DNA of 64,000 bases. Origin: Candidatus Aenigmatarchaeota archaeon (GTDB taxonomy: Archaea > Aenigmatarchaeota > Aenigmatarchaeia > QMZP01 > JAFGSV01). Within the stretch, counting starts at the first letter, position 1, and each line of letters opens with the position of its first letter. The notes beneath the pieces were generated by a model. It was given only the letters and a program-made list of their open reading frames with translations. It was not told the DNA's origin and made no database searches. Made by a program: the position numbers and the translations under genes. The stretch lies in the NCBI GenBank assembly GCA_016931255.1, contig JAFGFG010000005.1, positions 7,053-71,052 on the forward strand. The letters are read 5' to 3'. Positions 2,347-64,000 of this stretch are shown here, piece by piece.

Positions 2347-4302
2347 ATGACAACTAAATGGATTGTTGAAGATAAGGAAAAAGAGAATGTTTTCTGGCCG
2401 TCTGAAGAGATGAAGAAGGCTGCATGGGTCTCAGACCCGAAGATATACGATGAGGCTTTGAAAGACCAGAAGGCTTTCTGGGCTGAGAAGGCAGGAGCGC
2501 TTCACTGGGAGAAGAAGTGGGACAATGTCTATGAACAGGAACCCGGAAAGCCATGGAATTTCAAGTGGTTCGTTGGCGGAAAGATAAATGCTGCTTACAA
2601 CTGCCTCGACAGGCACGTAGAGGGAGGCAAGGGCGACAAGGTGGCCATGATATGGGTGCCTGAGCCGACAGACGAGAAGCCTGTGAAGATAACATATTCA
2701 GAGCTTAACAAGAAAGTCAACAAGTTTGCCAATGCTCTCAAGAAGCTTGGCATAAAGAAGGGTGACAGGGTCGGTGTGTACCTTCCGATGATACCCGAGC
2801 TCATGATATCGCTTCTTGCAGTTGCGAGAATTGGTGCTGTACACAATGTCGTATTCTCCGCATTCAGCGGGGAATCCGTGAAGGACAGAATGGAAGACGC
2901 AGAGGCGAAGCTTCTCATCACAGCAAACGGATATTACAGGCGCGGCAAGCTCCTTGACCTCAAGAAGAATGCTGACATAGGTGTCGAAGGAACACCTGTC
3001 AAGAACGTTGTCGTTGTCAAGAGGGCAGAGCTTGATGTCAACTGGGTTGACGGCAGAGACCATTGGTTCCATGAGCTTATCGAAAAAGAGAGCGAAAAGT
3101 GTGAAAGCGAATTCGTGGAAGCCAATGACATGCTGTTCATGCTCTACACGAGCGGAACAACAGGAAAGCCCAAGGGCATTGTTCATGACACCGCAGGATA
3201 CCTCACGCAGGCCTACTGGACAACCAAGTGGAACTTCAATGCCAAGGATGACGATGTCTTCTGGTGCACAGCTGATGTCGGCTGGATAACCGGACACACA
3301 TACGGATGCTATGGACCGTTCTCAAACGGCATCACACAGATTGTTTTCGAGGGCGCTCCCGACTATCCGGACATCGGACGATGGTGGAAGACGATTCAGG
3401 ACCACAAGGTCAGCGTGTTCTACACAGCACCGACAGCAATCAGGATGTTCATAAAGGCCGGCGATGCATGGCCTAAAAAGTACAACCTAGAGAGCCTCAA
3501 GATACTCGGTTCAGTAGGTGAGCCGATAGACGAGGAGGCATGGCTATGGTACTTCAGGACCATCGGAGGGGGAAGATGCCCGATAATAGACACATGGTGG
3601 CAGACCGAGACCGGCGCAAATGTTGTCAACACGCTTCCGGGTATCGGACCTTTCATACCGACTGTGGCAGGACGGCCGTTCCCGGGAATAGACATGAAAC
3701 TCGTTGACGAGGAAGGGAATGACGCAGAGATGTCAGGATACCTCGTTGAGAAGCCTCCTTTCGCACCAGGCATGCTCAGGGGCATCTACAAGAACGAGCA
3801 GAAGTACATAGACACATACTGGTCAAGGTTCAAGAACCTTTACGATACAAGCGACGGAGCAAAGCTCAGGGAAGACGGACTCATCAGGATAACAGGAAGG
3901 GTTGATGATGTCATGAAGGTCGCGGGACACAGGCTTTCCACAGGAGAGCTCGAGAATGCCATAAACGAGCACGAGCTCGTCAGGGAATCAGCAGTCGTCC
4001 CGAGGCCGGACAAGATAAAGGGCGAGGTGCCCATAGTCTTTGCTCTTCTCATAGACCCGTCCAAGGCTACTGAAGAGACAAAGGCCGAGATTGTCAGGCA
4101 CGTCGACAAGATGATAGGGCCGACCGCAAGGCCGGCTGCAATCTACTTCGTGGATGACGTGCCAAAGACACGTTCAGGAAAGATAATGAGAAGAATTCTC
4201 AGGGGGCTTGTCACGAACGACACGAACCTCGGAAATGTCACAACACTCATGAATCCCGAATGCGTCGAGCATCTCAAGGAAGTCGTTGGATACGGGGGCT
4301 AA
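2347..4302 (+). CDS. acs: acetyl-CoA synthetase, AMP-forming
   Basis: 651 aa with the AMP-binding signature YTSGTTGKPKG. It is full-length Acs-like across N-terminal, ANL core and C-terminal lid, including the catalytic-lysine region PKTRSGKIMRR. Confidence 0.93.
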   Translation: MTTKWIVEDKEKENVFWPSEEMKKAAWVSDPKIYDEALKDQKAFWAEKAGALHWEKKWDNVYEQEPGKPWNFKWFVGGKINAAYNCLDRHVEGGKGDKVAMIWVPEPTDEKPVKITYSELNKKVNKFANALKKLGIKKGDRVGVYLPMIPELMISLLAVARIGAVHNVVFSAFSGESVKDRMEDAEAKLLITANGYYRRGKLLDLKKNADIGVEGTPVKNVVVVKRAELDVNWVDGRDHWFHELIEKESEKCESEFVEANDMLFMLYTSGTTGKPKGIVHDTAGYLTQAYWTTKWNFNAKDDDVFWCTADVGWITGHTYGCYGPFSNGITQIVFEGAPDYPDIGRWWKTIQDHKVSVFYTAPTAIRMFIKAGDAWPKKYNLESLKILGSVGEPIDEEAWLWYFRTIGGGRCPIIDTWWQTETGANVVNTLPGIGPFIPTVAGRPFPGIDMKLVDEEGNDAEMSGYLVEKPPFAPGMLRGIYKNEQKYIDTYWSRFKNLYDTSDGAKLREDGLIRITGRVDDVMKVAGHRLSTGELENAINEHELVRESAVVPRPDKIKGEVPIVFALLIDPSKATEETKAEIVRHVDKMIGPTARPAAIYFVDDVPKTRSGKIMRRILRGLVTNDTNLGNVTTLMNPECVEHLKEVVGYGG

Positions 4303-5019: not shown

Positions 5020-5833
5020 CAGGCTTTCCTGAGAGCCTCTCCAGCTTGGCTATCCTTCTCTTTATCGGAGGATGCGTTGAGAAAAGTCCTGTGAACCAGT
5101 CTTCGTGGAATGGGTTCGCTATCCACATATGTGATGTTGCAGACGGTCCCTTCATTGGCCTGTCGTGACTGTATTCACTTATCTTTCTCAGTGCCGAAGC
5201 AAGTGCGCCGGGATTCTTGGTGAGCATAACAGCTCCATGGTCTGCTGCATATTCCCTTCTTCTGGAAATAGCGAGCTTGACTATTGAAGCTGCAAGCGGT
5301 GCGAATATAACTATCAGAATGAGCCCGAAAAGGCTTGAATTGTCCCTGTTGTCCCCGAACATGCTCCAGTACCCTATCATCGCGATATAGGATATTGCGC
5401 CGGCTATTGTGGCTGCTACGGTCTGTATGAGTGTGTCACGGTTCTTTATATGAGTAAGTTCGTGCGCAAGCACACCCTCTATCTCCTTTTTTGAAAGGTG
5501 GGTGAGCCCGCGCGTCAGGGCGACAGCGCCGTGCTCAGGATTACGCCCTGTGGCGAATGCATTGGGGACATCACTTGAAAGCATGTAGACATCAGGCTTC
5601 GGTATCTGGGCCTCCTTTGCCAGCTCCTTCACCATCTCGTTAAGTCCTTCGTCGTCTGTGAGCTGGGCGCCGTATAATCTGAGGACTATCCTGTCCGAGT
5701 ACCAGTATGAAACGAAATTCAGCATGAAAGCCATAATCAGCGCGAATGTCATCCCTGCTATGCCTCCCATGAGGAGACCGACACCCAGCAGTATGGCAGA
5801 AAGCGCTGCAAGAAGAATTGCTGTCCTGAACAT
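5003..5833 (-). CDS. htpX: zinc metalloprotease HtpX (M48)
   Basis: N-terminal TM helices, the HEXXH motif HELTHIKNRD and C-terminal TM segments give an HtpX-type architecture. Confidence 0.85.
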   Translation of the reverse strand: MFRTAILLAALSAILLGVGLLMGGIAGMTFALIMAFMLNFVSYWYSDRIVLRLYGAQLTDDEGLNEMVKELAKEAQIPKPDVYMLSSDVPNAFATGRNPEHGAVALTRGLTHLSKKEIEGVLAHELTHIKNRDTLIQTVAATIAGAISYIAMIGYWSMFGDNRDNSSLFGLILIVIFAPLAASIVKLAISRRREYAADHGAVMLTKNPGALASALRKISEYSHDRPMKGPSATSHMWIANPFHEDWFTGLFSTHPPIKRRIAKLERLSGKPGDYDE

Positions 5834-6939: not shown

Positions 6940-7848
6940 ATGGCTCATGAAAGCATTGCGGCGGAGATAGCGAAGCTGAAGAAGAAGCATAATGCAGTTA
7001 TACTCGCGCACAACTACCAGCTTCCGGAGGTCCAGGACATAGCTGATTACACAGGCGATTCCCTCGGGCTTGCGATGAAAGCAGCAGAAACGGATGCTGA
7101 TGTAATAGTATTCTGCGGGGTAATGTTCATGGCGGAGACAGCGAAGATACTCTCTCCGGAAAAAAAAGTAATAATACCGGAACCGGATGCATTATGTCCC
7201 CTTGCAGCGATGATAACACCTGAGACTGTAAGGAAGCTGAAGAAGGACAATCCCGGCGTGCCTGTCATAGCTTATGTCAACACAACTGCTGCTGTAAAAG
7301 CTGAATCAGACTACTGCTGCACATCCAGCAACCTCCTGAAGGTAGCTGACCACGTGAAAACCAGGAAGATTATATTCATACCTGACAGGCACATGGCTGC
7401 ATACCTCCAGATAGAATCCGGAAAGACCGTAATCACAGGCAACGGCTACTGCTCTACGCACGCGAAGATACTTCCGGAGCACATCATGAAGCAGAAGAAG
7501 AAGCATCCGAAAGCAATGGTTCTCACTCATCCTGAATGCGTGTATGAAGTGCTTGAGCTGGCTGACATCATAACAAGCACAGGAGGCATGCAGAAGTATG
7601 CAAAAAGCCTTGATGCCAGGGAGTTCATAGTCGCAACAGAGAACGGGCTTCTCTACGGGCTGAGAAAGGACAATCCGGGAAAGAAGTTCTATCCCGCAAG
7701 CGAATCTGCATTATGCCCCAACATGAAGAAGACTGACATGGGAAAGGTTCTTGAGTCGCTGAAGACGCTGAAGCACGAGGTCACGCTGCCTGATGACATA
7801 ATCAGGAAGGCAAAGCTTCCCATAAAAAGGATGCTGGAAATATCTTAA
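6940..7848 (+). CDS. nadA: quinolinate synthase A
   Basis: ILAHNYQ, VMFMAETAKIL and three Cys-containing segments match the NadA family. Size is 302 aa. Confidence 0.9.
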   Translation: MAHESIAAEIAKLKKKHNAVILAHNYQLPEVQDIADYTGDSLGLAMKAAETDADVIVFCGVMFMAETAKILSPEKKVIIPEPDALCPLAAMITPETVRKLKKDNPGVPVIAYVNTTAAVKAESDYCCTSSNLLKVADHVKTRKIIFIPDRHMAAYLQIESGKTVITGNGYCSTHAKILPEHIMKQKKKHPKAMVLTHPECVYEVLELADIITSTGGMQKYAKSLDAREFIVATENGLLYGLRKDNPGKKFYPASESALCPNMKKTDMGKVLESLKTLKHEVTLPDDIIRKAKLPIKRMLEIS

Positions 7849-11366: not shown

Positions 11367-14300
11367 ATGGACTTCAGGAAAAGTTCCGCCGCGACAATTT
11401 CTCTGGTAGCGTTATTCTTCTCTATGATTGTCGTCATTTATTCCGTTAACTATGCAACGGCACTCGACGAGCCGACACTTGTCCACATCTATGACGACAT
11501 AGGTCCGTTCCATGCCTGCTCCTATTACAGCCTGAACTCCTTCGACAAACTAAGCAAGCTCGACACCACAACGCTGACGCTTGACAGCAAGAACGAGGTC
11601 ATCGGAAAGATCAGTAACGGGAAGTGGGAATGGAAGCTCACCGTCCCGTACACCGTGGCTGTCGTGGACGAGAAAATCCCGCGAACAGTGACATCTTGCC
11701 AGGAAGACAACGTAACGAAAGAAGAGATATGCAACGAAGAAACTGCATATGATTACACTTACAAGGACGAGACAAGATACAAAAACGTGTGGAAGCCGTT
11801 TGACGACTACAAGATGGTCTATAATCATGACATTGGCGTGAAAACCAATCCTGTCCAGATGGTCCGTTACTGTGCCGACACAGAACTCGTGCAGGAAGGA
11901 GGCCTTTGGAGACTGGCCGTGGACATCATCCCGACATTCGACGGCAGGGTATATCCGGAGTACAACTGGTGGAACACCTCCATGACCAGATCGAACGTTA
12001 CGACTATAAACAGTGACGCCGAACTTTTCTTGGTGAATGACACTTACGGGCTCGACATAGGAGGAGGTATACAGTACATCTGGTGTGAGAAGGGAACTAC
12101 CCAGATATACAACGACACAAATGGTAATATATACTGCTCAAATGGAACTGACAGACTTCTGACAATCATAGACGAAGGTAATGGAACTGATTATAATCTC
12201 ATAGGGTTGGACGGAGATATTCTGCGATTCTACACGCTCAATGGCACGGACACTTATGACCACAGCGTTTATGGTGTCCACGGCATAAACCAGACAAATA
12301 TAGATTCGATAGAAGGGCAGATAGGCAAGGCTCTCAACTTCACAGGAAACTCACATTTTGAAGTTCCCGACTTGTACAACACAGCACCGGCTGCCGGAAC
12401 AATGCTCATGTGGGTATATATGACTGATGCACAATCTACATGCAGGAATGAGAAGCTGATTGATTCAAACAACTTCTTCCAGATAAACTTTCATAACTAT
12501 GCTTCCTACACCCAGACCATAGAATTCCATAGCAGAAGCGGGAGTTCCACCGACAAGATACGTTATCTATCGGGAGATTATGTCCATCCTATGAATCAGT
12601 GGTTCTTTTTGACGATTGAATGGAACTCGACTGGTTTCAGTATGTATGTCAATGACAGTAAAATAACGACGTGGGATACATCAACGTTTAACGCAGGAGT
12701 AGTCGGAGGGTTCGATTCGGACTGGAGATTCGGGGAGAACATAGCCGGTACTGCCGATTGTCTCAATGCCGGATTTGACAATGTGTTGTTCCTAAATAGG
12801 TCGATATCTAACGCGGAAAGGACTGCATACTACGAGAACACCAAGCCAGATGGCTATTCAGATGTTGGAGACATGGAAACGTATCACATCACTAAAACAA
12901 ATATATACCAACCAATAAACGATACTGTTCACAACAAAGACACGATAAACCTTCTCTGGTCCTTCGAAGACTCCGAATACGAAGAACCAGTCTGGGCAGC
13001 CTACAGCTTCAACGACAACATAACGAACGAGAGCCTCTTCTTCAACGACGAAAATTACACGAAATTCTTCTTTCCACTGAGTTCTGGAAATTTGGATCTT
13101 TATACGCCTGTAGGCAACCCCAATGGGATAGCGACCAATGGTTCCTATATTTGGATAACAGACGGTCAGCAGAACTCTGTCTACGTGTTCACAACAGAAG
13201 GCGAATACGTAGACGATTTCCAGCTCAGCGAATTTCATTCCTCAATACTTGGAATTACCACAAACGGTACATATATTTGGATATCGGACCCGAATAATCA
13301 TAGTGTCTTCATGTATGACATGAACGGTGATTACACCGGAATCAATTTCAGTGTTATACAGGATGACGGCACTGATCCAGCATTCGGCATGGACAATGAC
13401 GGAACATATTTTTGGTTGACAAAATACCTTGATAAAGGAATTTTCAGGTACTGGATTAACAACAGGACTTTCTCGGATTTCAATTTCAGCGTCGCCGATG
13501 AAACAGACGACCCATGGGGCTCAACCACCAACGGCACTTATATATGGGTAACCGATAATGTCGATGGCAAGATATACAAATACGAAACAGATGGAGATTA
13601 TACGGGAAGAAGCTTTTCCACTGCAGCTAGCAACTCCAATCCGAGAGGCATAGCGGCTTCGTATCCCTTCCTTTGGGTTGTTGACAGTACGGATTATTCT
13701 GTTTTCAAGTATGCGTACGCACCCACATTCAGCAACGTTACCCTGCAGACTTCCCAAGGTTGGAACAATGTGACGGTATGTGCCAATAACACCGATGGCG
13801 ACCTCGCCTGCAACTCCACCACTTTCTTCGTTGATTCCATACCACCTGAAATTAACATCACATTCCCGCAGAACAACACCCGCTACAACTTTACATGGGT
13901 TAATATAACAGGGACAGCCAACGACACTAATATCGATACCGTATGGATAAACGACACCAACTTCGGTATCAATCTGGACGACTACTACAACTGGAACTTC
14001 ACCAACATGAGCATAGAAGAAGGAGACTACTCGCTTACTGTTTATGCCAACGACACAGCAGGGAACGAGGTGAGCACTGAGGTGCATTTTATGATTGGTG
14101 TGTGGAATGTGACGTTCCACGTATATAGTGGGGAATATGGAGAAGAATTAACAAGTATTATTGTTTTCTGCAATAATTCAATAATTTATTCTTTAGACAG
14201 CGGTGACACGGTAAGCTTTACGACAGGCGATTTTAGTTGTATATTCGATGAAGAAAATTTCTATAATAAGACTGTAGAATTTACTGTAAATAACGACACG

Positions 14301-15074
14301 GAAATAGATGTGACACTTTCTATAATGGGCGGCCTAACAGTAGAAGAACATGTATGGCTAGATTATTTATATGACTGCTGGTCAACTGGTGATTGCAGGG
14401 ACACCTTGAACAACATAGAGACGACTGTAGTATACATCAACCAGACCACGGAACAGATAAAGGAAACCGTTGACAACGTCTGGGATCAATTTGAACAGAC
14501 GGACGAGGACGTGGTCGAAGAGACACGTATAAATATGGAAGTCAACGAATCTTCCAACATAACGATCAACTACTCGATAAATGTGCCTGTAAAGCAGGAC
14601 TATCAGTTCCTTCCGATAAGGATATTCTACTGGTTCCTTGACGAGACGAACACATCATGTTACAGCCAGGGAAACTATACTGTTGAGATGGTGGAGCCGT
14701 ACTGTCAGCCGCTGGTCGCCCACACCATCGGTGAGGTAAACACCGTCCTCAACTTCACGGTCGAGATGAGGCCGAGCCTGCCTACAGGGAATTACACGCT
14801 GGTCAGGAGGATAGACATAGACCCCGACGAGATATGGATAAACTACGGGCATGAAGTTATAGGAACGATTGATGTGACAGAGGATTCGACTCAGAACAGC
14901 ATCGGTCTTAAGGTGGCAGGAAATGGTCCGACCGCTGAAGAAGTGAGATCCGATAGTGTGACCGGAGAGGTCATAGGATTCATGTTCGACAACGGAACGG
15001 TCTCACTCATAGTCTCGGTGATGTCACTAGTAGTCGTTGTGACATACATAACATCAAGAAAGAAAATTAGATAA
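11367..15074 (+). CDS. large cell-surface glycoprotein with LamG/concanavalin-like domain and NHL/SMP-30-type beta-propeller repeats, C-terminal TM anchor
   Basis: 1235 aa. N-terminal hydrophobic signal/anchor. GKALNFTGNSHFEVPD...MLMWVYMTD resembles LamG. Four to six ~45-aa blades (NGSYIWITDGQQNSVYVF, NGTYIWISDPNNHSVFMY, DGTYFWLTKYLDKGIFRY, NGTYIWVTDNVDGKIYKY). Dozens of N-x-S/T sequons. C-terminal TM helix plus RKKIR. Confidence 0.8.
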   Translation: MDFRKSSAATISLVALFFSMIVVIYSVNYATALDEPTLVHIYDDIGPFHACSYYSLNSFDKLSKLDTTTLTLDSKNEVIGKISNGKWEWKLTVPYTVAVVDEKIPRTVTSCQEDNVTKEEICNEETAYDYTYKDETRYKNVWKPFDDYKMVYNHDIGVKTNPVQMVRYCADTELVQEGGLWRLAVDIIPTFDGRVYPEYNWWNTSMTRSNVTTINSDAELFLVNDTYGLDIGGGIQYIWCEKGTTQIYNDTNGNIYCSNGTDRLLTIIDEGNGTDYNLIGLDGDILRFYTLNGTDTYDHSVYGVHGINQTNIDSIEGQIGKALNFTGNSHFEVPDLYNTAPAAGTMLMWVYMTDAQSTCRNEKLIDSNNFFQINFHNYASYTQTIEFHSRSGSSTDKIRYLSGDYVHPMNQWFFLTIEWNSTGFSMYVNDSKITTWDTSTFNAGVVGGFDSDWRFGENIAGTADCLNAGFDNVLFLNRSISNAERTAYYENTKPDGYSDVGDMETYHITKTNIYQPINDTVHNKDTINLLWSFEDSEYEEPVWAAYSFNDNITNESLFFNDENYTKFFFPLSSGNLDLYTPVGNPNGIATNGSYIWITDGQQNSVYVFTTEGEYVDDFQLSEFHSSILGITTNGTYIWISDPNNHSVFMYDMNGDYTGINFSVIQDDGTDPAFGMDNDGTYFWLTKYLDKGIFRYWINNRTFSDFNFSVADETDDPWGSTTNGTYIWVTDNVDGKIYKYETDGDYTGRSFSTAASNSNPRGIAASYPFLWVVDSTDYSVFKYAYAPTFSNVTLQTSQGWNNVTVCANNTDGDLACNSTTFFVDSIPPEINITFPQNNTRYNFTWVNITGTANDTNIDTVWINDTNFGINLDDYYNWNFTNMSIEEGDYSLTVYANDTAGNEVSTEVHFMIGVWNVTFHVYSGEYGEELTSIIVFCNNSIIYSLDSGDTVSFTTGDFSCIFDEENFYNKTVEFTVNNDTEIDVTLSIMGGLTVEEHVWLDYLYDCWSTGDCRDTLNNIETTVVYINQTTEQIKETVDNVWDQFEQTDEDVVEETRINMEVNESSNITINYSINVPVKQDYQFLPIRIFYWFLDETNTSCYSQGNYTVEMVEPYCQPLVAHTIGEVNTVLNFTVEMRPSLPTGNYTLVRRIDIDPDEIWINYGHEVIGTIDVTEDSTQNSIGLKVAGNGPTAEEVRSDSVTGEVIGFMFDNGTVSLIVSVMSLVVVVTYITSRKKIR

Positions 15075-27498: not shown

Positions 27499-28584
27499 AT
27501 GAAAGTTTATGTGGCAACGAACATCATAGGCGTGTTCGCTTTTGATGATAAGAAGATGGTTGATTACAGCCTTTTCCAGCCTGACGCTGTAATCATAGCA
27601 GAGAAGCTGAAGGATGTCAGGAAAGGCGAGCTGATTCCCGAAGAGGAGAAGTTGATAAAGGAACTGAAAAGGGCAGGCTACAAGAAGATAATCTGGGACA
27701 AGAGGATAGATTTCCCGGGAATGGAATGCCTCTACGAGCCTGACAATGTTGCCAAGACAATCCTCCAGAAAGACTACAGGAAGCTCGCGCTCGAGCTGAA
27801 GTTCGTCCCGACGCAGACAGAACTGAACAAGCTCCTTTCAAGGATTAATATCCAGCTTACCAAGTCTGAGCTCAGGAAGGAGAAAAAGGATGTCATACTG
27901 ATGAGGGCCATCGGAGTTCTGGACGAGCTCGACAGGACCATCAACACGCTTTCGGAGCATATGAGGGAATGGTACGGGCTTTACTTCCCTGAAGCCGAGA
28001 AGCTGATAAAGGACCACGAGCATCTTGCAACAGCCATATCAACAGAAGGCAAGAGGGAGAGCATTTCCGATTCTCGTGTCAGGAAGTATGCCTCATTATC
28101 CGCAGGCATGCCTTTCAATGGCGACGACCTGATAGCTGTGCAGGGATACGCCAAGGAAGTCAAGTCGCTGTACAAGACGAGGGACAACATCTCACTTTAC
28201 ATACGCAAGGAAGCCAAGACATTCATACCGAACCTGACAGCTGTGGCAGGACCTCTTATAGCATGCAGGCTGATCTCACTTGCAGGCGGACTGGACAAGC
28301 TGGCGAAGCTTCCTGCAAGCACAATACAGCTTCTTGGTGCTGAGAAGGCGCTGTTCAGGCATCTCAAGAGCAATGAGAAGCCGCCCAAGTTCGGAGTCAT
28401 ATTCGCTCATTCTCTCATACAGGATGCTGACAGAAGCGTGCGCGGCAAAGTCGCAAGAATGCTTGCGTCGAAGCTGATGTTTGCGGCAAGAGCGGATTTC
28501 TACACAGGAAAGAACATAAGCGAGAAGCTGATGTCAGACCTTACAGCAAAAATCGGAACCTCATCAAAGGTAAAGAAGAAGTAA
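27499..28584 (+). CDS. nop5: box C/D snoRNP protein Nop5 (Nop56/58)
   Basis: 361 aa. N-terminal Nop5 NTD, a coiled-coil region, and a C-terminal Nop domain (AGPLIACRLISLAGGLDKLAKLPASTIQLLGAEKALFRH). Confidence 0.88.
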   Translation: MKVYVATNIIGVFAFDDKKMVDYSLFQPDAVIIAEKLKDVRKGELIPEEEKLIKELKRAGYKKIIWDKRIDFPGMECLYEPDNVAKTILQKDYRKLALELKFVPTQTELNKLLSRINIQLTKSELRKEKKDVILMRAIGVLDELDRTINTLSEHMREWYGLYFPEAEKLIKDHEHLATAISTEGKRESISDSRVRKYASLSAGMPFNGDDLIAVQGYAKEVKSLYKTRDNISLYIRKEAKTFIPNLTAVAGPLIACRLISLAGGLDKLAKLPASTIQLLGAEKALFRHLKSNEKPPKFGVIFAHSLIQDADRSVRGKVARMLASKLMFAARADFYTGKNISEKLMSDLTAKIGTSSKVKKK

Positions 28585-28651
28585 CCGGAAGCCAATAGCG
28601 GATACTGGAAAGAACTCTCTGGCTTCATGCTGGCGCGTCAATGATTTGTGC

Positions 28652-28945
28652 TCATTTCAAACAGTCCTCACAATACCATCCCTCGCCAGTGAGCCTGACA
28701 CATGTGGATATCTCACCACACGTATCGCAGACTGCGAGTTCGCTTCTGGAAAAGACCTTTGGCCTGTATCTTCCGCCGTCCTTTATCTTTGAGAAGCAAA
28801 AAAAGCAAACGCTTCTCTTCACACTGTTGTTCGTGTGTTCCGGCCATCTGTCTTCCCATATGCTTTCCCCGCAGATATGGCAGTTATTCATATTCAACAC
28901 CTCTGTTGGAATGGCTGGATTCATGATTAAGTCTTGATTTTTCAA
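28652..28945 (-). CDS. double zinc-ribbon protein (97 aa), antisense between nop5 and fibrillarin
   Basis: Four Cys pairs: CHIC, CFFC, CDTC, CEDC. Competing plus-strand ORFs at the same locus lack any motif. Confidence 0.4.
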   Translation of the reverse strand: MKNQDLIMNPAIPTEVLNMNNCHICGESIWEDRWPEHTNNSVKRSVCFFCFSKIKDGGRYRPKVFSRSELAVCDTCGEISTCVRLTGEGWYCEDCLK

Positions 28946-29027: not shown

Positions 29028-29690
29028 GTGGTTATGAAGAGTGTATTCGACGGTGTTTTCAGGAGCGGCAGGAAGCTCTTCACAATGAACATGATACGCG
29101 GCTACAGGGAGTATACAAGAAGCACTGTGTCGGAGGGCGGGAAAGTCTACAGGGAGTGGGACCCCGGAAAGAGCAAGCCTGCTGCTGCGATAATGAAAGG
29201 CATAAAGAAATTTCCCCTTTCCAGGGGATCGAAGGTGCTTTACCTTGGCGCTGCCTCAGGAGCCACGTGCAGCTTCTTCTCGGACATAATCGGAGAGGAC
29301 GGCGTCATATACGCGGTCGAGATATCAGAGCGGTCAGTGAGAGACCTCAACAACACTTCAGAGGCGCGCGGCAACATAGTCCCCATACTTGCTGATGCGA
29401 GGAAGCCCGAGGAATATGAATGGGTCGAGCCTGTGGACATAGTCTTTCAGGATGTTGCCAGCGACGACCAGGCACAGATACTTGTGAGGAACGCCGTGAA
29501 GTTCCTGAAGAAGGGCGGCTATGCCATGATAGCCATAAAGTCGAGAAGCATAGACGTCACAAAGCCTCCAAGGGAAGTGTACAAAGACCAGCTTGAGATA
29601 ATGGAAAAGAAGATGAAGGTGCTGGAAAAGGTGGAACTTGACCCCTTCGAGAAGGACCACCTTTTTGTCATCATGCAGATGAGGACCTAG
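29028..29690 (+). CDS. flpA: fibrillarin-like rRNA/tRNA 2'-O-methyltransferase
   Basis: SAM-binding motif VLYLGAASGATCS and C-terminal fibrillarin blocks (FQDVASDDQAQIL, MIAIKSRSID). Likely start MKSVFDGV at 29034. Confidence 0.9.
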   Translation: MVMKSVFDGVFRSGRKLFTMNMIRGYREYTRSTVSEGGKVYREWDPGKSKPAAAIMKGIKKFPLSRGSKVLYLGAASGATCSFFSDIIGEDGVIYAVEISERSVRDLNNTSEARGNIVPILADARKPEEYEWVEPVDIVFQDVASDDQAQILVRNAVKFLKKGGYAMIAIKSRSIDVTKPPREVYKDQLEIMEKKMKVLEKVELDPFEKDHLFVIMQMRT

Positions 29691-44152: not shown

Positions 44153-44224
44153 GCCTCGGTGGCTCAACGGTAGAGCGGCGGTTTTGTAAACCGCAGGTTG
44201 GGGGTTCGATTCCCTCCCGAGGCT
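44153..44224 (+). tRNA. tRNA-Thr (anticodon TGT)
   Basis: Cloverleaf by hand. Acceptor GCCTCGG/CCGAGGC. D arm GCTC-AACGGTA-GAGC. Anticodon arm GCGGT-TTTGTAA-ACCGC (U33, anticodon TGT, A37). T arm GGGGG-TTCGATT-CCCTC. Discriminator T. No encoded CCA. Confidence 0.8.
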
Positions 44225-44307
44225 TGACTTCGCCTTTGATACTTTTTTTGATAATGTTTTACGTCCACATGATAATATTTATAAATAATGTGCCCGTATA
44301 ATAAACT

Positions 44308-44766
44308 ATGACATATACAGAAGTAAAGGAGAGGAATGGAAAGAGGTATTACTATAGGGTTAGAAGTATAAGAAACGGCGATAAGTTCCGAAAGGAGCGG
44401 ATATATATGGGAATTGGCCTGTCTGGGAGCGAGTTGTCTGAAAAGGAAGTGCTCGCAGATAAGAAATTGATGAAAGATAAAATAGAGATCGGCCTGAAGT
44501 CGATAAAACCGAAGATAGTCAGTGTACTTAAGAAAAACAACATCAAAAGGGCTGGAATATTCGGAAGCTATGCTCGGGGAGAACAGAAAAAGAACAGTGA
44601 CGTTGACATCTTAATTAGACCCCCAAAGAATACTGGCTTCGGGTTTGCGGGAATTGAGCTTGAACTCGAGAAGAAACTCAAGAAAAATGTAGATTTGGTA
44701 AGCTACAATGGTATAAGTCCTTACACGAAAGATCGGATTTTGCAGGAGGAAGTCAGAATATTATGA
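44308..44766 (+). CDS. minimal nucleotidyltransferase (MNT) antitoxin-type protein
   Basis: GIFGSYARGEQKKNSDVDILI nucleotidyltransferase motif. Overlaps downstream hepT by 4 nt. Confidence 0.8.
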   Translation: MTYTEVKERNGKRYYYRVRSIRNGDKFRKERIYMGIGLSGSELSEKEVLADKKLMKDKIEIGLKSIKPKIVSVLKKNNIKRAGIFGSYARGEQKKNSDVDILIRPPKNTGFGFAGIELELEKKLKKNVDLVSYNGISPYTKDRILQEEVRIL

Positions 44767-45113
44767 ATGGAAAAAATGACATTGTTTACATCAAGCACGT
44801 CATGGACAGCATAGGTGCCATAAACGATTTTTCAAGGGGGATTAGCAAGAGGGAACTAAAGACCAACAGAATGAAGCGTAGTGCGATAGTGAGGGAAATA
44901 GAGATAATAGGGGAAGCTGTCAAGAACGTTTCGAGTGCTACTAAGAACAGATACCGCCATATACGATGGAAAGAGATTGCCGGAACCAGAGACAAAATGA
45001 TACATCACTATTTCGGTGTCGATTTGGACATTGTCATGTCAATCGTAACAAATGATATCCCCATTCTGGAAAAGGAAATGCTTAAGATACTGAAAGATAT
45101 GGAAAAGTATTAA
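44763..45113 (+). CDS. HepT-like HEPN toxin (DUF86)
   Basis: RDKMIHHYFGVD matches the HepT Rx4HxY motif. 116 aa. Confidence 0.8.
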   Translation: MNGKNDIVYIKHVMDSIGAINDFSRGISKRELKTNRMKRSAIVREIEIIGEAVKNVSSATKNRYRHIRWKEIAGTRDKMIHHYFGVDLDIVMSIVTNDIPILEKEMLKILKDMEKY

Positions 45114-45175
45114 GGAAATATTTTAAGGACTGCAAGCTAAATACCTACTGTAAGAATTGAGATTATTGTCAACTC

Positions 45176-45188
45176 CCTCCCGAGGCTT
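45176..45188 (+). repeat. direct repeat of tRNA-Thr 3' end (att-like copy 1)
   Basis: tccctcccgaggcttg: 16 of 16 identical to tRNA positions 44210-44225. Confidence 0.7.
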
Positions 45189-45221
45189 GTCACTTCTATA
45201 CAATCCCGATTGATATCATTT

Positions 45222-46133
45222 TCAAGCAGACTTTAAATATTTTTTCTTTATGTAATTTATGAAAGGACGTTCTTTTTTCTCTATCTGGTATTTGTCCAGT
45301 ACATCGTAGTATTTTTCAATGTCTTCTATAGGTATATCTATTGGCGGGTATCCCTTCTTCCATAGTATCCAGTTCATGAGCAGTCTTGAAAGTCTTGAGT
45401 TGCCGTCGATAAATGGCTGCATCGATATGATTTTAATGTGGATTAGTGATGCAAGTTCAATTGGATGCAGTTTCCTGTTCTCGGACTTATACCACTTGAA
45501 GAATCTGTCGATTTCCTTTGATAACTCATTCCATTTGGGTGGGACGTAAGATGTTCCTGCTATCTTGACATTCCTTTTCAGTTCAGATCTCAACTTTCCT
45601 GCTATTGAATCGTCAACGCCTGAAAGCAGTAGTTTATGAAGATTTTTGATGAATCTTATGTTGAGAACACCTTTGTATTTGGTTATAGCGATAATTCCTT
45701 TTTCATGATTTTCAAGCTCCCTTGCTGTTTTGAGACTCTTGAAATCTTTAGGAATGAAACCCTCCCTAAGAATCAGCGAAGTTTGCCTCAGCGTTACATC
45801 AACACCCGAAAGCTTGCTACTGTCGTAAGTGAACCTTATTATGAACTCTTGGAACTTGTTATTCTTTTCAGTCGAGCTCATCTTCTTTAGCTCGCTCTCG
45901 TATTGCTCCCTTTTCGCTTCTATCTTCTTGACATCTTCGCCTGAAAGAAAAGCGTGCTTTCTCCCATCCAGATTTGCCAGGAACTCTTTTTTGATATATT
46001 CTAGTCTGTCTTTTGGTGGCAGTGTTTTCCCTATGTATTTCTTCTTCTGTAATACCTTCTTTCCAACTCTTACCGAATGTATCAGTATCCAATAATCATT
46101 CCCGTTGACCTTAATCTTCTTTGCAGTTACCAT
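45222..46133 (-). CDS. Fic/DOC-family protein
   Basis: Fic motif HPFIDGNSRLSRLL (HPFx[DE]GN[GS]R). 303 aa. Confidence 0.75.
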   Translation of the reverse strand: MVTAKKIKVNGNDYWILIHSVRVGKKVLQKKKYIGKTLPPKDRLEYIKKEFLANLDGRKHAFLSGEDVKKIEAKREQYESELKKMSSTEKNNKFQEFIIRFTYDSSKLSGVDVTLRQTSLILREGFIPKDFKSLKTARELENHEKGIIAITKYKGVLNIRFIKNLHKLLLSGVDDSIAGKLRSELKRNVKIAGTSYVPPKWNELSKEIDRFFKWYKSENRKLHPIELASLIHIKIISMQPFIDGNSRLSRLLMNWILWKKGYPPIDIPIEDIEKYYDVLDKYQIEKKERPFINYIKKKYLKSA

Positions 46134-59397: not shown

Positions 59398-61443
59398 GTG
59401 GTTAAGATGATGCTTGGAAAGATACACGGAAGGGTAACGACAACTGAATTCAGCTTCGAGGCGGAAGCCCAGATAAAGAAACTGGACTTCGTGGTCGTGA
59501 AGACCCAGGAAGGCGAATGGGCTACTGCTTACATAGATAACATCACCCGTTATGGTGAGACGACCCTTGCCGAGTGCAGGGTCATAGGATACCGGAACAA
59601 CCGCGGATTCCTTGTCGTCCCCAATGTGCCGTTTGCTCCTGAAACGCCTGTTTTCTCCGCATCGGAAGACCAGATAAGGAATACGCTGGGGATACCGGAT
59701 TCCGGCCTCTACATAGGCATTCTGGACGGATACAACATCAAGGTGAACCTTCCCATAAAGCAACTTGTAACGAAGCACGTCTCGATTCTCGCCAAGACCG
59801 GCGCGGGCAAGAGCTACATGGCAGGCGTCCTGATGGAGGAATTCGCTGAGAACAGGACACCTGTTGTCATAATGGACCCCCATGGAGAATACGCCTCGCT
59901 CAGCGTCGCGAATGACGAGGAGAAGGAGCTGAAGTTCGCTGAGAAGTTCGGCGTGGAGCCCAAGTCATACCAGGACCAGATAAAGCGCTTTACCATTGAA
60001 GACGGCAGCCTGCGGCTGAATTCGAGGCTCACTGCTGACGAGCTCTTCCACTGCCTGCCTGTGAAGGTTTCCGGGACGCAGAAAGGCCTCATATATTCGG
60101 CGATGAGGAACCTCGGCGGGAAGGACTATTCACTCAACGACCTCATAAACGAGATAAGCACGCTTCCGTCCCAGTCCAAATGGAACCTCATTTCAGCGCT
60201 CGAGTTCCTTGACAAGACCAAGCTGTTTTCGCATGATTTCACTAAGCCTGAAGACCTGGTCAGGCCCGGGCAGATATCTATAATCGATGTAAAATTCGCA
60301 AGGCCTGAGATACAGCAGACGATAGTGTTCAAGCTTGCCAATGAGCTGTTCGCAGCAAGGAAGGCCAGCAAGGTTCCGGGATTCTTCCTCGTCCTTGAGG
60401 AGGCCCACAACTTCTGTCCCGAGAGGGGGTTCGGCGAGGTTGCGTCATCTTCCATAGTCAGGACAATAGCATCCGAGGGAAGGAAATTCGGGCTGAGCCT
60501 CTGCGTCATAACGCAGCGTCCAGCAAGGGTTGACAAGAATGTGCTGTCGCAATGCAACACCCAGATAATAATGAAGGTCACGAATCCCAATGACCTGAAG
60601 GCCATCACCGATTCAGCAGAAGGCATAACAGCCGGCATGAGGGATGAGATAAGGGACCTTCCTGTCGGCAGCGCCCTCGTTGTCGGCGTCACCGAGCATC
60701 CTATGCTCACTGAGATAAGGATACGGAGAAGCAAGCACGGGGGCGAGGCAGTTGCCATGCCAGTGAAGGGCGGGCCCATGAAGGTCAGGAACACCACGCT
60801 TCCGCCAAGGTTCAGCAAGCAGGACATAGAAGCCGAGCACAAGGAAGCCAATGTATACAGGGTGAACTATCCTGTGTGGGAACTGAAGGGAACAGTCAGC
60901 GGCCAGATAGGGAAGCTCTTCATAGACGGCCTCATAGGGGAAGTCATGTACGAGTCCCAGGGCGAGCTGAAGAGAACGAATGGACTCAAGAGCCTCGTGA
61001 CGCTTTCATCAGTCGAGAGGAAGATAATATCGAGCCTTCTTTCATTGAAGTACGGTAACCTTGACAAGGTCGCCACTTCGACAAGGCTCATGAACAACGA
61101 CTGCCACAGGCTGCTGAAGAACCTGATGTCCAAGGGGCTCGTGACAAGCGACGGCTACAACTTCCGTCCTGTGAGGGTCAAGATACCCGGGGACATAATG
61201 AGCCTCGGCTTCAGCGAGGACTCGAAGGAGATGGAAATCGACGGGAAGATAATGAACTTCTCCGTGCCGAGGGACACTGCCGAGAAGGTGGCAGGCTTGT
61301 TCGGCATGCAGGTGGAATCCTCAGACATGATTTACTACCCATACTGGCTTGTTGTCTACAGCAACAGGAAGGCCCTTGTGGACGGCCTGACGAAGAAAGT
61401 CGACATAGAAGCCACAAGGGAAGTCATGGGAATGATAAGGTAA
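59398..61443 (+). CDS. HerA-like (DUF87) ATPase with N-terminal HAS-barrel and C-terminal winged-helix domain
   Basis: Walker A ILAKTGAGKSY. Walker B FFLVLEEAHNF. Arginine-finger region VITQRPARVD. C-terminal ~200 aa contains a wHTH-like ISSLLSLKYGNLDKVATSTRLMNNDCHRLLKNLMSKGLV. 681 aa. Confidence 0.75.
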   Translation: MVKMMLGKIHGRVTTTEFSFEAEAQIKKLDFVVVKTQEGEWATAYIDNITRYGETTLAECRVIGYRNNRGFLVVPNVPFAPETPVFSASEDQIRNTLGIPDSGLYIGILDGYNIKVNLPIKQLVTKHVSILAKTGAGKSYMAGVLMEEFAENRTPVVIMDPHGEYASLSVANDEEKELKFAEKFGVEPKSYQDQIKRFTIEDGSLRLNSRLTADELFHCLPVKVSGTQKGLIYSAMRNLGGKDYSLNDLINEISTLPSQSKWNLISALEFLDKTKLFSHDFTKPEDLVRPGQISIIDVKFARPEIQQTIVFKLANELFAARKASKVPGFFLVLEEAHNFCPERGFGEVASSSIVRTIASEGRKFGLSLCVITQRPARVDKNVLSQCNTQIIMKVTNPNDLKAITDSAEGITAGMRDEIRDLPVGSALVVGVTEHPMLTEIRIRRSKHGGEAVAMPVKGGPMKVRNTTLPPRFSKQDIEAEHKEANVYRVNYPVWELKGTVSGQIGKLFIDGLIGEVMYESQGELKRTNGLKSLVTLSSVERKIISSLLSLKYGNLDKVATSTRLMNNDCHRLLKNLMSKGLVTSDGYNFRPVRVKIPGDIMSLGFSEDSKEMEIDGKIMNFSVPRDTAEKVAGLFGMQVESSDMIYYPYWLVVYSNRKALVDGLTKKVDIEATREVMGMIR

Positions 61444-61539
61444 ATCAGTTCACATCCCAAAACTTCCTTTCGTAAGCCATGGGAATGATACGCTGACCTC
61501 GAAAATTATTTAAAATTCCCCGTACATGTTCATACACAT

Positions 61540-61691
61540 GCCTCGGTGGCTCAGTGGTTAGAGCGCCGCACATCCCTAATAAGGATTGGGTGAAGCTCAT
61601 AAGCGTGTCTTATGAGCGATGAGAAAACGTTTGTTTTCAATGACATAGCTGAGATACGCGGAGGCCGTGGGTTCAAATCCCGCCCGAGGCA
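61540..61691 (+). tRNA. tRNA gene with ~79-nt insertion (intron candidate); anticodon unresolved
   Basis: 5' GCCTCGG-TG-GCTC-AGTGGTTA-GAGC-G-CCGCA. 3' CGCGG-AGGCC-GTGGG-TTCAAAT-CCCGC-CCGAGGC-A. Normal acceptor, D and T arms. Same acceptor stem as the tRNA-Thr at 44153. The insert contains a 9-bp hairpin GCTCATAAG/CTTATGAGC and box C/D-like GATGAG ... CTGA motifs. Confidence 0.55.
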
Positions 61692-61780: not shown

Positions 61781-61921
61781 CTATTTTCCAAGGAAATTCC
61801 TGATTTGCTCCCTTAACCATTCAGCCTTTGAATTATAACCAGAAGCTTTGAGTTTTGCCTCGAAAGCTTCATGAATGTCCTTTTCAATTTGGGCTTTGAT
61901 TTCAAGTTCGATTTTAGGCAT
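61781..61921 (-). CDS. ribbon-helix-helix (CopG/antitoxin-like) small protein, 46 aa, not in ORF track
   Basis: Hand translation gives MPKIELEIKAQIEKDIHEAFEAKLKASGYNSKAEWLREQIRNFLGK. This is an RHH beta-strand plus two-helix pattern. Divergent from the downstream MNT. Confidence 0.4.
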   Translation of the reverse strand: MPKIELEIKAQIEKDIHEAFEAKLKASGYNSKAEWLREQIRNFLGK

Positions 61922-61974: not shown

Positions 61975-62589
61975 TTGAAGAAACAACAGTTGGTTAAAAT
62001 GCTTAATGAAACTGAATTAAAAATATTGTATGCCTTCTTTCCAGAGGGTACAGAAAGGACTACAAAAGAAATAGAAGACCGCTCAAGTTATTCCCATGAA
62101 CGTGCTTATTCCACACTCAAAATATTAGAAAAAAAAGGCATTTTGTTAAAAAAGAAGGTAGGAAAGGCACTTGTTTATTCAATTAAAAAATTTGATGACT
62201 CTGTTTATCTTGCGTTTACTTACTACTCATTAAATAAGAAAAATACTTTTGCAAAGAAATATTCCTCTGCTTGGAAAGCTATTGATGAATTTATCAACAA
62301 AACAAAACTGGAAATGGTTATATTGTTTGGCAGTTATTCAAAAGGAGAAGTAAAGGAAAGAAGCGATGTTGATGTTTTATGCATCAATGGAAACTCAGAA
62401 GCTGAAAAAATTGCTTTGTCTTTAAGACATAAATATAATTTGAAAATAGCTCCTGTTATTGTGGATAAAGAAGATTTCAGAAACATTAAGTCAGAGAATC
62501 CTGAACTGTGGGAAGAACTTATCAAATTCGGAATTATTCTTAAAGGGCAGGAATTATTTTATGATTTAGTTTATAGGTGGGATAAATGA
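61975..62589 (+). CDS. wHTH-nucleotidyltransferase (MNT) protein
   Basis: VILFGSYSKGEVKERSDVDVL motif. N-terminal wHTH. Overlaps the downstream HEPN gene by 4 nt. Confidence 0.75.
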   Translation: MKKQQLVKMLNETELKILYAFFPEGTERTTKEIEDRSSYSHERAYSTLKILEKKGILLKKKVGKALVYSIKKFDDSVYLAFTYYSLNKKNTFAKKYSSAWKAIDEFINKTKLEMVILFGSYSKGEVKERSDVDVLCINGNSEAEKIALSLRHKYNLKIAPVIVDKEDFRNIKSENPELWEELIKFGIILKGQELFYDLVYRWDK

Positions 62590-63122
62590 AGAAAGATTTT
62601 AATTGGTTCATTCAGGAAGGCTTGCTTTCAAAAACTCAATTCATACAGAGATTAGCACCAAGATTTATCGAAAAAGCAAAGAATAATCTCATAACACTGA
62701 GCATTCTGTTTGATCTTCACAATAACAAAGATGTAAGGGACTCTTTGAATGTCCCCGAGGATTATGATTCAAGCGAATGGGTTGTAGTTTGTGCATATTA
62801 TGCAATGTATATGGCAGCATCAGCAGCTCTTGCCAAAATTAGCTATAAGAGCAAAAATCATACTGCAACTGTTCTGGCTCTGGAAACATTCTTTGTGAAG
62901 AAACAGCTATTGGAAGAGAGTTATCTGAAGATGATTGAAAAAGCGCAACTGGAAAAACAATACATTGACAACCTGAATCTTGCAAGAGACAGAAGAGAAA
63001 TTGCTCAATACAGCGTCACAAAAGAAACGACGAGAAGGATTGCTGAGGAAATCAAGAAAGATGCTTACAAGTTTGTGGAAAGGATGGAGAAGTTAATTGA
63101 AAACTTAGACCCGAGGGATTGA
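62586..63122 (+). CDS. HEPN-like domain protein partnered with MNT
   Basis: 178 aa, all-helical, in the canonical MNT-HEPN operon position. The Rx4-6H motif is not obvious (RDRREIAQY). Confidence 0.55.
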   Translation: MKKDFNWFIQEGLLSKTQFIQRLAPRFIEKAKNNLITLSILFDLHNNKDVRDSLNVPEDYDSSEWVVVCAYYAMYMAASAALAKISYKSKNHTATVLALETFFVKKQLLEESYLKMIEKAQLEKQYIDNLNLARDRREIAQYSVTKETTRRIAEEIKKDAYKFVERMEKLIENLDPRD

Positions 63123-63124
63123 TT

Positions 63125-64000
63125 ATGGGTTTACCTAGTGCTCAAATGGTAGGAGGAAATCTTCAGGATGAAAAATTTACAAACATGTACAGCTTGTCAA
63201 AGACACTAAGATTTGAATTGAAGCCTATTGGGAAGACTCTCGAACATATCGAAAAAAAGAAATTGATACGCCAGGATGAAAAAAGAGCAGAAAGCTACAA
63301 GAAAATGAAGAGAACCATTGATGGCTTCCACAGGGATTTCATCGAACTTGCGATGTCACAGGTAAAATTAACAAAACTAAAAGCATTTGCCAAACTGTAC
63401 AATGAATCTTCAGAACGTAAAAAAGAAGATGACTTCAAGAAGAAATTCGAGAAAGTGCAGGCTGATCTGAGAAAAGAGATCGCCGAAGGGTTTAAGACTG
63501 GTAAAGCAAAGGAAACATTCTCAAAGATTGACAAAAAGGAATTGATAACTGAGCTCCTGCCAAATTGGATAAGAACACAGGAAGGACAAAATAAAAATAT
63601 TTACTTCGATGATAAGTTCAAAAGATTCACAACATACTTCGGAGGCTTCCATGAGAATCGGAAAAACATATACACTGACAAAGAACAATCCACAGCTATT
63701 GCCTATCGATTGATACATGAAAATTTACCAAGATTCCTGGATAACATCAAGACCTTTGAAAAGATTAGATTAATACCTGAATTATATAAGGAATGCGCCA
63801 TCCTGTACGAAGAAATAAAAGAATATCTTGAGATCACACGTATCAACGATGCTTTTAAGGTGGATTATTACAATAAAGTGCTCACTCAAAAACAGATGGA
63901 TGTTTACAATCTGATTATTGGTGGACGCACTCCTAAAGAAGGGCAAAAGAAGATTCAGGGACTGAATGAACAGATCAACCTGTACAACCAAAAACAGAAC
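63125..64000 (+). CDS. cas12a: Cas12a (Cpf1) type V-A CRISPR effector, N-terminal 291 aa only; gene continues beyond window
   Basis: Hand translation from 63125 is open to the window end: [74 protein letters not shown] ... [39 protein letters not shown] ... [29 protein letters not shown]. This is colinear with FnCas12a [22 protein letters not shown]...[24 protein letters not shown]...[16 protein letters not shown]...IYRIVDDNLPKFLEN...FNTIIGG...GINEYINLYSQ. Start is 2 nt after the HEPN stop. Confidence 0.9.
   Translation, partial: [292 protein letters not shown]

Follow-up and report, generated by a model that had tools for sequence, protein, structure and literature searches.

A predicted two-intron tRNA(CAU) gene with a conserved antisense/kink-turn module in its anticodon-loop intron, from an Aenigmatarchaeota archaeon

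We analyzed an interrupted tRNA gene in a 64,000-nucleotide stretch of contig JAFGFG010000005.1 (assembly GCA_016931255.1, forward-strand positions 7,053 to 71,052) from a Candidatus Aenigmatarchaeota archaeon; this whole stretch is called the window, and its positions are counted from its first letter. The gene lies between a HerA-like ATPase gene and a group of toxin-antitoxin and Cas genes (Table 1). At 152 nt it is 79 nt longer than a 73-nt tRNA, and its Rfam score, obtained on the unspliced gene, stands well above the curated gathering threshold of 29 bits for RF00005; the tRNA feature is real, far beyond what chance would give. The acceptor, D and T arms are canonical, and the acceptor stem (GCCUCGG/CCGAGGC) is the same as that of tRNA-Thr(UGU) at 44153-44224, with the discriminator differing (A73 here, U73 in tRNA-Thr). 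On the tRNA itself, its canonical arms and the shared acceptor stem the original prediction, made from the DNA letters without database searches, was right. An A/T-rich TATA-like box, presumed to be the archaeal promoter, precedes the gene, and homologues have similar boxes (TTTAAAA or TTATAAAT) at an equal distance upstream. Sequence features and comparison with the homologues described below show the locus to be a tRNA(CAU) gene, both intact and conserved, from a DPANN archaeon of the Aenigmatarchaeota.

The extra 79 nt are predicted to form two introns, of 25 nt and 54 nt, which flank a 7-nt micro-exon. We defined the BHB (bulge-helix-bulge) motif by two bulges of 3 nt, on opposite strands, with a 4-bp helix between them and cleavage after the second base of each bulge, and our own scanner searched for an outer helix, the 4-bp helix, a 3-nt bulge and an inner helix, cutting after the second bulge base. 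As a control, it was run on intron-containing tRNA-Thr genes from other archaea, where it gave the canonical 37/38 introns and mature sequences that were correct. In the window it found a good BHB that excises intron 1 and joins ...GCGCCGC to GCUCAUAAG..., and both introns have the two bulges and the 4-bp helix between them. The first motif (BHB1) has the central helix CGCC (61564-67)/GGUG (61589-92), the bulges GCA (61568-70) and AAG (61593-95), a 3-bp outer helix between GAG (61561-63) and CUC (61596-98), and a 2-bp inner helix. The second (BHB2) has the central helix CUCA (61596-99)/UGAG (61650-53), the bulges UAA (61600-02) and AUA (61654-56), and likewise a 2-bp inner helix; its outer helix is 1 bp with intron 1 present and 5 bp (CCGCG/CGCGG) once intron 1 is removed. 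These short flanking helices imply relaxed BHB forms and, presumably, an endonuclease of broad specificity. The two motifs exclude each other because both use C32-C34. BHB1 is complete in the primary transcript, and the 5-bp outer helix of BHB2 needs exon 1 to be joined to exon 2.

Removal of intron 1 gives CCGC-G-CUCAUA, that is, G31 followed by a normal anticodon loop, and splicing of both introns in silico yields a perfect 73-nt cloverleaf that ARAGORN labels tRNA-Met(cat), a label that comes from the anticodon alone. The spliced anticodon loop, CUCAUAA, is unambiguous, with seven nucleotides, U33, a purine at 37 and the anticodon CAU, and the anticodon stem is CCGCG/CGCGG, including G31-C39. 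The original prediction had counted the 79 nt correctly as a total and had proposed a search for BHB folds, of which two were indeed found, but it placed the insertion as one piece between stem halves CCGCA and CGCGG with an A-C mismatch. The A of that mismatch is the first intron base, the true nucleotide 31 is the G of the micro-exon, and the anticodon loop that had seemed ambiguous is resolved by splicing at two sites. The non-canonical position it suspected holds for intron 1 (30/31); intron 2 lies at the canonical 37/38. By sequence and comparison, the primary transcript has two BHB introns around an anticodon micro-exon.

Table 1. Positions of the tRNA(CAU) gene, its predicted parts and other genes in the window
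Feature	Position	Strand	Evidence or remark
Nop5 gene	27499-28584	+	Pfam Nop PF01798 (2.7e-57) and archaeal Nop5 N-terminal domain
Fibrillarin gene	29028-29690	+	Pfam PF01269, 6.2e-77
Fic gene	45222-46133	-	After MNT/HepT cassette
HerA-like ATPase gene	59398-61443		Upstream neighbour of the tRNA
A/T-rich TATA-like box AAAATTATTTAAAATT	61502-61517	+	~25-35 nt upstream of tRNA 5' end; read from sequence
Interrupted tRNA gene	61540-61691	+	Rfam RF00005, 51 bits, E 5e-8
Exon 1: acceptor 5' strand, D arm, G26, nt 27-30 (CCGC)	61540-61569	+	Rfam match; BHB1 cut after C30
Intron 1: 25 nt, ACAUCCCUAAUAAGGAUUGGGUGAA, non-canonical 30/31	61570-61594	+	BHB1
Exon 2: 7-nt micro-exon GCUCAUA (G31-A37), carries anticodon CAU	61595-61601	+	Spliced cloverleaf
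Intron 2: 54 nt, canonical 37/38	61602-61655	+	BHB2
Antisense ("guide") element CUUAUGAGC	61609-61617	+	Pairs with G31-A37 and first two intron bases (61595-61603)
D'-like box AUGA, non-bulged kink-turn strand	61619-61622	+	UGA invariant in 15/15
Kink-turn canonical (C) stem, hairpin GAAAAC-GUUU-GUUUUC	61623-61638	+	Pairing kept in homologues
Kink-turn bulge AAU, sheared-pair GA, CAU; C'-like box (AUGAYNN)	61639-61646	+	GA invariant in 15/15
Exon 3: A38, CGCGG anticodon-stem 3' strand, variable loop, T arm, acceptor 3' strand, A73	61656-61691	+	
46-aa open reading frame	61781-61921	-	No Pfam match
wHTH-MNT (wHTH-nucleotidyltransferase)	61975-62589		Downstream of CAU tRNA
HEPN	62586-63122		Downstream of CAU tRNA
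Cas12a N-terminus, first 277 codons, cut by window end	63167-64000		REC1, E 1.4e-74

Homologues were collected in several ways. A genome scan (one genome per species) with the tRNA 3' end as query gave at least 120 loci; among the matches listed, 117 of the 3' ends belong to tRNA-Thr and three (L002, L050 and L060, two of them labelled Aenigmatarchaeota) to an interrupted CAU gene. A metagenome scan gave two matches, L121, with different exon sequences, and L122, a copy of L060, and a viral-contig scan gave none. Contigs with orthologs of the ATPase supplied nine more genes (L123-L125 and L127-L132), and a covariance model a tenth, L126. Near L133 and L134, two more distant orthologs of the ATPase, a search with covariance model R1 turned up no copy, nor did it find a second one in the window. 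The comparison set, to which the counts below refer, is thus 15 genes: that of the window and L002, L050, L060, L121 and L123-L132, all on related Aenigmatarchaeota contigs. Thirteen of the 14 homologues lie no more than 1.4 kb downstream of the same HerA-like ATPase gene, 52-82% identical; the remaining one, L121, is on a 1.3-kb contig that has no flanking gene for comparison.

The micro-exon GCUCAUA is unchanged in every gene of the set. The 30/31 intron is present in eight genes and absent from L124, L125, L126, L127, L128, L130 and L132; genes without it (L124, L127, L130 and others) have GCGCCGC|GCTCATA, the predicted junction, and read ...GCGCCGCGCTCATA..., the junction being GAGCGCCGCGCTCATA, or GCACCGCGCTCATA in L126 and GCGCTGCGCTCATA in L132. 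The exon junctions predicted for the window are confirmed by these homologues, since they read exactly that junction. The stems show compensatory changes: in the acceptor stem of L121 and L127, in the anticodon stem (A29-U41 in L121 and L123, U28-A42 in L132) and in the T stem of L121, L123 and L127. The GGUG strand of BHB1 in the window is GGCG in L002, L050, L121, L129 and L131, changing a G-U pair to G-C. Intron sites vary, with introns in the D-loop (L126, L128), at 22/23 (L125), at 30/31 (the eight genes) and in the T-loop at 59/60 (L125, L128, L130, L132), and the anticodon-loop intron is present throughout, at 37/38, or at 38/39 in L126 and L132 (in L121 both positions fit equally, and the scanner picked 38/39). 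Of the 31 introns predicted in the set, 30 fit a BHB whose central helix has 3-4 bp; the exception is the D-loop intron of L128, where 3 of 4 central pairs form, flanking helices were not found and the mature D-loop is assumed. A further helix, GCGUGU(CUU)/(GRG)AUACGC, of 6-9 bp between the 5' end of the anticodon-loop intron and exon 3, occurs in the window's group and is lost in L124 and in the L125-L132 group.

Among the matches listed (L001-L120), the 22-nt 3' end of the CAU tRNA (GGGTTCAAATCCCGCCCGAGGC, window 61670-61691) otherwise occurs only in tRNA-Thr, from many archaeal phyla; the discriminator is the one difference between the two (A vs U), and the anticodon of tRNA-Thr(CGU) is one base from CAU. 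The shared 3' end may reflect an origin by anticodon shift, or convergence. The acceptor stem of L121 is unlike that of the window gene. The T-loop 59/60 introns of L125 (5024-5099) and L128 (about 3811-3886) each span 76 nt and resemble one another in sequence, and the 154-nt T-loop intron of L132 (about 3760-3913) contains a ~45-nt tandem duplication. In L132 part of the tRNA 5' end (GCCTCGTGACCC...) is also copied at 3577-3600. The copy lies ~75 nt upstream of the real start and has the usual TATA-like box in front of it.

The anticodon-loop intron holds a module with the same order in all 15 genes: antisense element, two nucleotides, NUGA box, hairpin, bulge and GA. The antisense core is UAUGAG or UGUGAG throughout and is antisense to the anticodon loop, a complementarity of the kind that the original prediction had proposed to look for, and the perfect 9-bp hairpin that it reported (61595-61603 with 61609-61617) is present in the minimum-free-energy fold. 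The duplex is 7-10 bp across the family, counting G31 where it is paired (9 bp in the window), covers G31 or C32 to A38, and starts at nucleotide 2 or 3 upstream of the NUGA box, which is CUGA, AUGA or UUGA and in every gene lies 3 nt after the guide's GAG. C34 is paired in all of them with the fifth nucleotide upstream of NUGA, despite loop lengths of 3-28 nt and differing hairpins. Seven different, fully paired hairpin stems occur: GAAAAC/GUUUUC, GCCUUCC/GGAAGGC, CGCCCUG/CAGGGCG, UGCGC/GCGCA, UGCGGGCUGG/CCAGCCUGCA, CGCC/GGCG and GAAC/GUUC. Eleven genes have a bulge of exactly 3 nt before GA, and the rest have one of 2-4 nt; the L125 bulge is UAU by eye, the parsing script having given CUAU owing to an extra C after NUGA. 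The base after GA is U in 12 genes, C in two (the window and L060) and A in one (L126).

On the model-fitted alignment, the guide helix has 97% standard pairs, and none of 500 shuffles gave as many double-change cells as were observed on that alignment. The variable hairpin stems are out of register in the MAFFT and Infernal alignments, with 75% paired there, so the covariation figure is conservative and understates the pairing; per-sequence parsing of the module is better evidence than the alignment statistics. The succession NUGA-hairpin-bulge-GA has the signature of a kink-turn, with the strand order of an internal box D'/C' pair, in a variant form in which a hairpin takes the place of the short loop. 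In the window the two strands are GCG-AUGA (61619-61622) and AAUGAC (61639-61644). As in the kink-turn/L7Ae motifs of box C/D, H/ACA and RNase P RNA, a Watson-Crick stem is followed by a 3-nt bulge, tandem G.A/A.G pairs and then U.U, and in the window's group a C-G pair closes the stem beside the bulge; unlike known kink-turns, four homologues depart from the 3-nt bulge. Taken together, we think it highly probable that the locus is a two-intron tRNA with a conserved antisense/kink-turn module, a judgement that does not extend to methylation itself.

Box C/D guides direct methylation to the nucleotide opposite the fifth guide nucleotide upstream of box D or D'. Fibrillarin is the 2'-O-methyltransferase of box C/D ribonucleoproteins (RNPs), and Nop5 is a trans-acting partner of such guides. 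Both are encoded in tandem in the window, with an unassigned 98-aa open reading frame (28641-28937) between them. The fibrillarin is 45% identical to the sequence that we take to be that of M. jannaschii fibrillarin, and the alignment of the Nop5 with its S. solfataricus counterpart (PDB 3id5) covers residues 1-352 from end to end, so that the coiled-coil region would be part of it. Among the roles considered for the module, the likeliest, though a tentative one, would be that of a box C'/D'-type guide acting in cis or, as a dimer, in trans. L7Ae would bind the kink-turn, and Nop5-fibrillarin would 2'-O-methylate C34, opposite the fifth nucleotide upstream of NUGA. Methylation of C34 would come first, followed by refolding into the BHB forms; intron 1 would then be excised and its exons ligated, and intron 2 after it, presumably by the splicing endonuclease and the RtcB ligase. 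The micro-exon takes part in three mutually exclusive folds, the guide hairpin, the outer helix of BHB1 and the central helix of BHB2, and in constrained folding the three conformers lie within about 4-5 kcal/mol, the guide form being the most stable. A slightly bolder proposal, to which we give somewhat less credence, is that the anticodon-loop intron is a natural minimal guide. It would have one kink-turn and one antisense arm, lie within an intron of the very tRNA that it targets, and direct fibrillarin to C34, the wobble base, before splicing, or afterwards as a pre-tRNA dimer or circular intron.

Several other readings of the locus itself were weighed. The original prediction favored one 79-nt intron at one non-canonical site, containing a complete box C/D small RNA with GCGAUGA as box C and CUGA at 61650 as box D. 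Both strings (GCGATGAGA and AGCTGAGA) do occur in the window, and ARAGORN in intron mode yields a one-intron model, yet that model is a Leu(gag) tRNA whose acceptor has 8 bp and whose anticodon stem contains two mismatched pairs; the default mode calls no tRNA at 61540-61691. Nor does any single excision give U33 and a purine at 37: a hand enumeration of every split of the nine positions 31-39 between the 5' side (CCGC-ACAUCCC...) and the 3' side (...CUGAGAUAC-GCGG) produced none, and the BHB scan of the window found no single excision giving a tRNA. The box assignments also fail, GCGAUGA being the D'-like strand that partners AAUGAC, and CUGA forming part of the BHB2 central helix (UGAG), which reads UGGG, GGAG, UAGG or UAAG in homologues. 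Genes that lack the first 25 nt prove the introns to be separate, and sequence comparison has in effect already refuted the one-intron model, which we regard as very improbable. Even less probable is a tRNA pseudogene broken by insertions or integration scars, a possibility raised with the original prediction. The tRNA 3' ends of this lineage do serve as integration sites (window 45172-45189; L123 5659-5696), but the inserted sequences are no repeats of the tRNA end, the same gene neighbors 13 of the 14 homologues, and exons, BHBs, TATA-like box and compensatory stem changes are kept in fifteen genes; this is a live, evolving multi-intron tRNA gene. The identity of the two-intron product leaves more room for choice. 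Archaeal initiator tRNA-Met is marked by A1-U72 and three consecutive G-C pairs (G29-G31 with C39-C41); here G1-C72 stands in place of A1-U72 and there is no G29G30G31/C39C40C41 run, which excludes the initiator. CAU and A73 suit either elongator tRNA-Met or tRNA-Ile2, in which C34 would be converted to agmatidine to read AUA. Elongator tRNA-Met is the most likely product, a choice made with good confidence because canonical introns across archaea are typically found in Met(CAU) and Trp tRNAs and a guide directed at the ribose of C34 suits Met (PMC2584109, PMC7668247); tRNA-Ile2 we hold to be unlikely. Two other candidate readings of the anticodon arm were tried and set aside: an 8-nt loop, CCGC|GCUGAGAUA CGCGG with anticodon GAG, was dropped (CUGAGA is not conserved in homologues), and the intron 1 hairpin CAUCC-CUAAUAA-GGAU as an anticodon arm (AAU) was rejected (it is missing in L002, L050, L121, L129 and L131).

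For a two-intron tRNA with this module, the function of the module admits further explanations. The antisense element and kink-turn could be structural, bound by L7Ae and serving to mask the anticodon, to hold the micro-exon or time BHB refolding as a splicing chaperone or checkpoint, or to stabilize the excised intron. That there is one kink-turn only, that the guide, BHB1 and BHB2 conformers are mutually exclusive and close in energy, and that a gene with as many as three introns and an exon of 7 nt plausibly requires folding help would all fit this, and many non-guide RNAs have L7Ae-bound kink-turns (PMC4245976, PMC5539422). A structural role would, however, leave unexplained the exact distance to the box, with C34 opposite the fifth nucleotide in every gene, and C34 is the residue that box C/D guides methylate on intron-containing pre-tRNA-Met elsewhere in archaea (PMC2584109); we consider this explanation somewhat doubtful. 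Compatible with the guide role, and in itself quite unlikely, is an action in trans of the excised, probably circularized intron 2 on other pre-tRNA-Met or on initiator tRNA, whose loop is also GCUCAUAA. In vitro, the pre-tRNA-Trp intron RNP works in trans (PMC2584109, PMC7994747), both tRNA introns and C/D RNAs are known to occur as circles (PMC7994747), and a circular form would read C'-box, spacer with guide, D'-box and closing hairpin, but the duplex of the window's group takes in the first two intron bases, which favors the unspliced precursor as target. A number of observations weigh against a C34 guide in a tRNA-Met gene. Canonical archaeal guides require a pair of motifs ~12 nt apart, both normally needed for site specificity, and RNPs with one site were active in vitro without being site-specific (PMC1635284); the intron has no second kink-turn or terminal C/D pair and no conserved C box 5' of the guide, and a regular-expression scan of the window for the full C-D'-C'-D small RNA arrangement found none. 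With the terminal C/D pair missing, the module is not a canonical two-motif box C/D small RNA, and the Nop5, aligned over its whole length with a canonical one, probably keeps the coiled coil, which suits a two-motif RNP. The module may work as a pre-tRNA dimer or with a partner RNA, or L7Ae may have a role there that is purely structural. In four of the 15 genes the bulge is 2 or 4 nt long or the non-bulged strand carries an additional base, and the AUGAUA segment of L125, L127, L130 and L132 has an alternative partner in the intron's 5' end, with which it can form the BHB inner helix (6-8 bp). An invariant target leaves the guide core no room to covary, and all homologues belong to one lineage, so that counts of 15/15 are not independent events.

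Clouet d'Orval (2001) and Singh (2004) are said to have described a box C/D small RNA nested in the euryarchaeal pre-tRNA-Trp intron. That intron guides Cm34 and Um39 and is the only described intron-borne guide (PMC2584109, PMC4090602, PMC7994747); a 2014 review terms it a "unique example" (PMC4090602). The likeness to it that the original prediction proposed holds in that a kink-turn stands beside an antisense to its own tRNA: both involve a 37/38 intron with an antisense to its own anticodon loop beside a kink-turn box, both place C34 opposite the fifth nucleotide upstream of a D-type box, and in both the guide and BHB folds are exclusive. It fails for the terminal C/D pair, since the Trp intron has C/D and C'/D' motifs and two guides, whereas here there is one kink-turn (in D'-hairpin-C' order), one guide and a CAU tRNA. 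Elsewhere, Cm34 of intron-containing pre-tRNA-Met is guided by separate small RNAs, Pyrococcus sR49 and Haloferax sR-tMet (PMC2584109, PMC4033218), which share with the module the target C34 of CAU, an intron-containing precursor and a duplex across the exon-intron junction; they are separate genes, "not intronic" (PMC2584109), whereas here the antisense element lies within the intron of its own target.

Archaeal multi-intron tRNA genes were reportedly described by Marck and Grosjean (2003) and by Sugahara (2007/2008). Such genes, with BHB introns at non-canonical positions, are known from Thermoproteales, Korarchaeota, Nanoarchaeota and ARMAN (PMC4090602, PMC5829648). The present family resembles them in its 3-nt bulges and 4-bp helix, in its sites (D-loop, anticodon stem, 37/38, T-loop), in the gain or loss of introns between relatives and in exclusive BHBs that entail ordered splicing, and differs in its Aenigmatarchaeota host, in a 7-nt exon barely extending beyond the anticodon loop and in the conserved, functional-looking module in the canonical intron. 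Within the searchable papers, our literature search found no description of multi-intron tRNA genes in Aenigmatarchaeota. The two-intron tRNA(CAU) gene joins the known multi-intron class, here in Aenigmatarchaeota, and its module is a variant of the tRNA-Trp intron-guide theme. If the module does guide Cm34, intron-encoded self-modification would not be peculiar to tRNA-Trp, this would be the second known tRNA intron to program modification of its own tRNA, and a guide with one kink-turn could work in nature, where it would correspond to the "half-mer" box C/D RNPs made by engineering; the question also bears on the persistent retention of Met and Trp introns in archaea. One orthologous gene shows five intron positions among close relatives, with the anticodon-loop intron (37/38 or 38/39) never lost, which makes the CAU tRNA family a clean system for setting intron gain and loss against functional retention. 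Annotation is affected too: ARAGORN overlooks the gene in default mode and calls it Leu(gag) in intron mode, so that genomes of this DPANN lineage can seem to lack the essential tRNA-Met; incomplete tRNA sets in DPANN genomes have already been noted (PMC5829648).

In this genome, mobile cargo of toxin-antitoxin and Cas genes lies next to tRNA 3' ends. Downstream of the CAU tRNA, the original prediction had listed a ribbon-helix-helix (RHH) gene, MNT-HEPN and cas12a; wHTH-MNT, HEPN and the Cas12a N-terminus were found, and the supposed RHH gene is the 46-aa open reading frame in Table 1. This flank is variable, since related contigs have pyrophosphatase and AlaX-like genes in its place, and no repeat of the CAU tRNA 3' end occurs downstream within the window. 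The claim that the same gene order follows tRNA-Thr does not hold: MNT/HepT and Fic follow there, and no cas12a was found. The largest open reading frame of the window (11367-15074, 1235 aa) carries Ig-like and glucodextranase-B domains and is not Cas12a, so no "first" cas12a is seen near tRNA-Thr. The 3' end of tRNA-Thr(UGU) (TCCCTCCCGAGGCTTG, 44209-44226) is repeated ~960 nt downstream at 45172-45189, and the two copies bracket an MNT (44308-44766)/HepT (44763-45113) toxin-antitoxin pair, which looks like a cassette integrated at the tRNA-Thr end. In L123, a LAGLIDADG_3 open reading frame (5059-5484) lies between the ATPase gene and the tRNA, and a remnant of a tRNA 3' end (...TTTCCCGCCCGAGGCA, 5659-5696) directly follows the intact tRNA, which suggests a past integration or excision at this tRNA.

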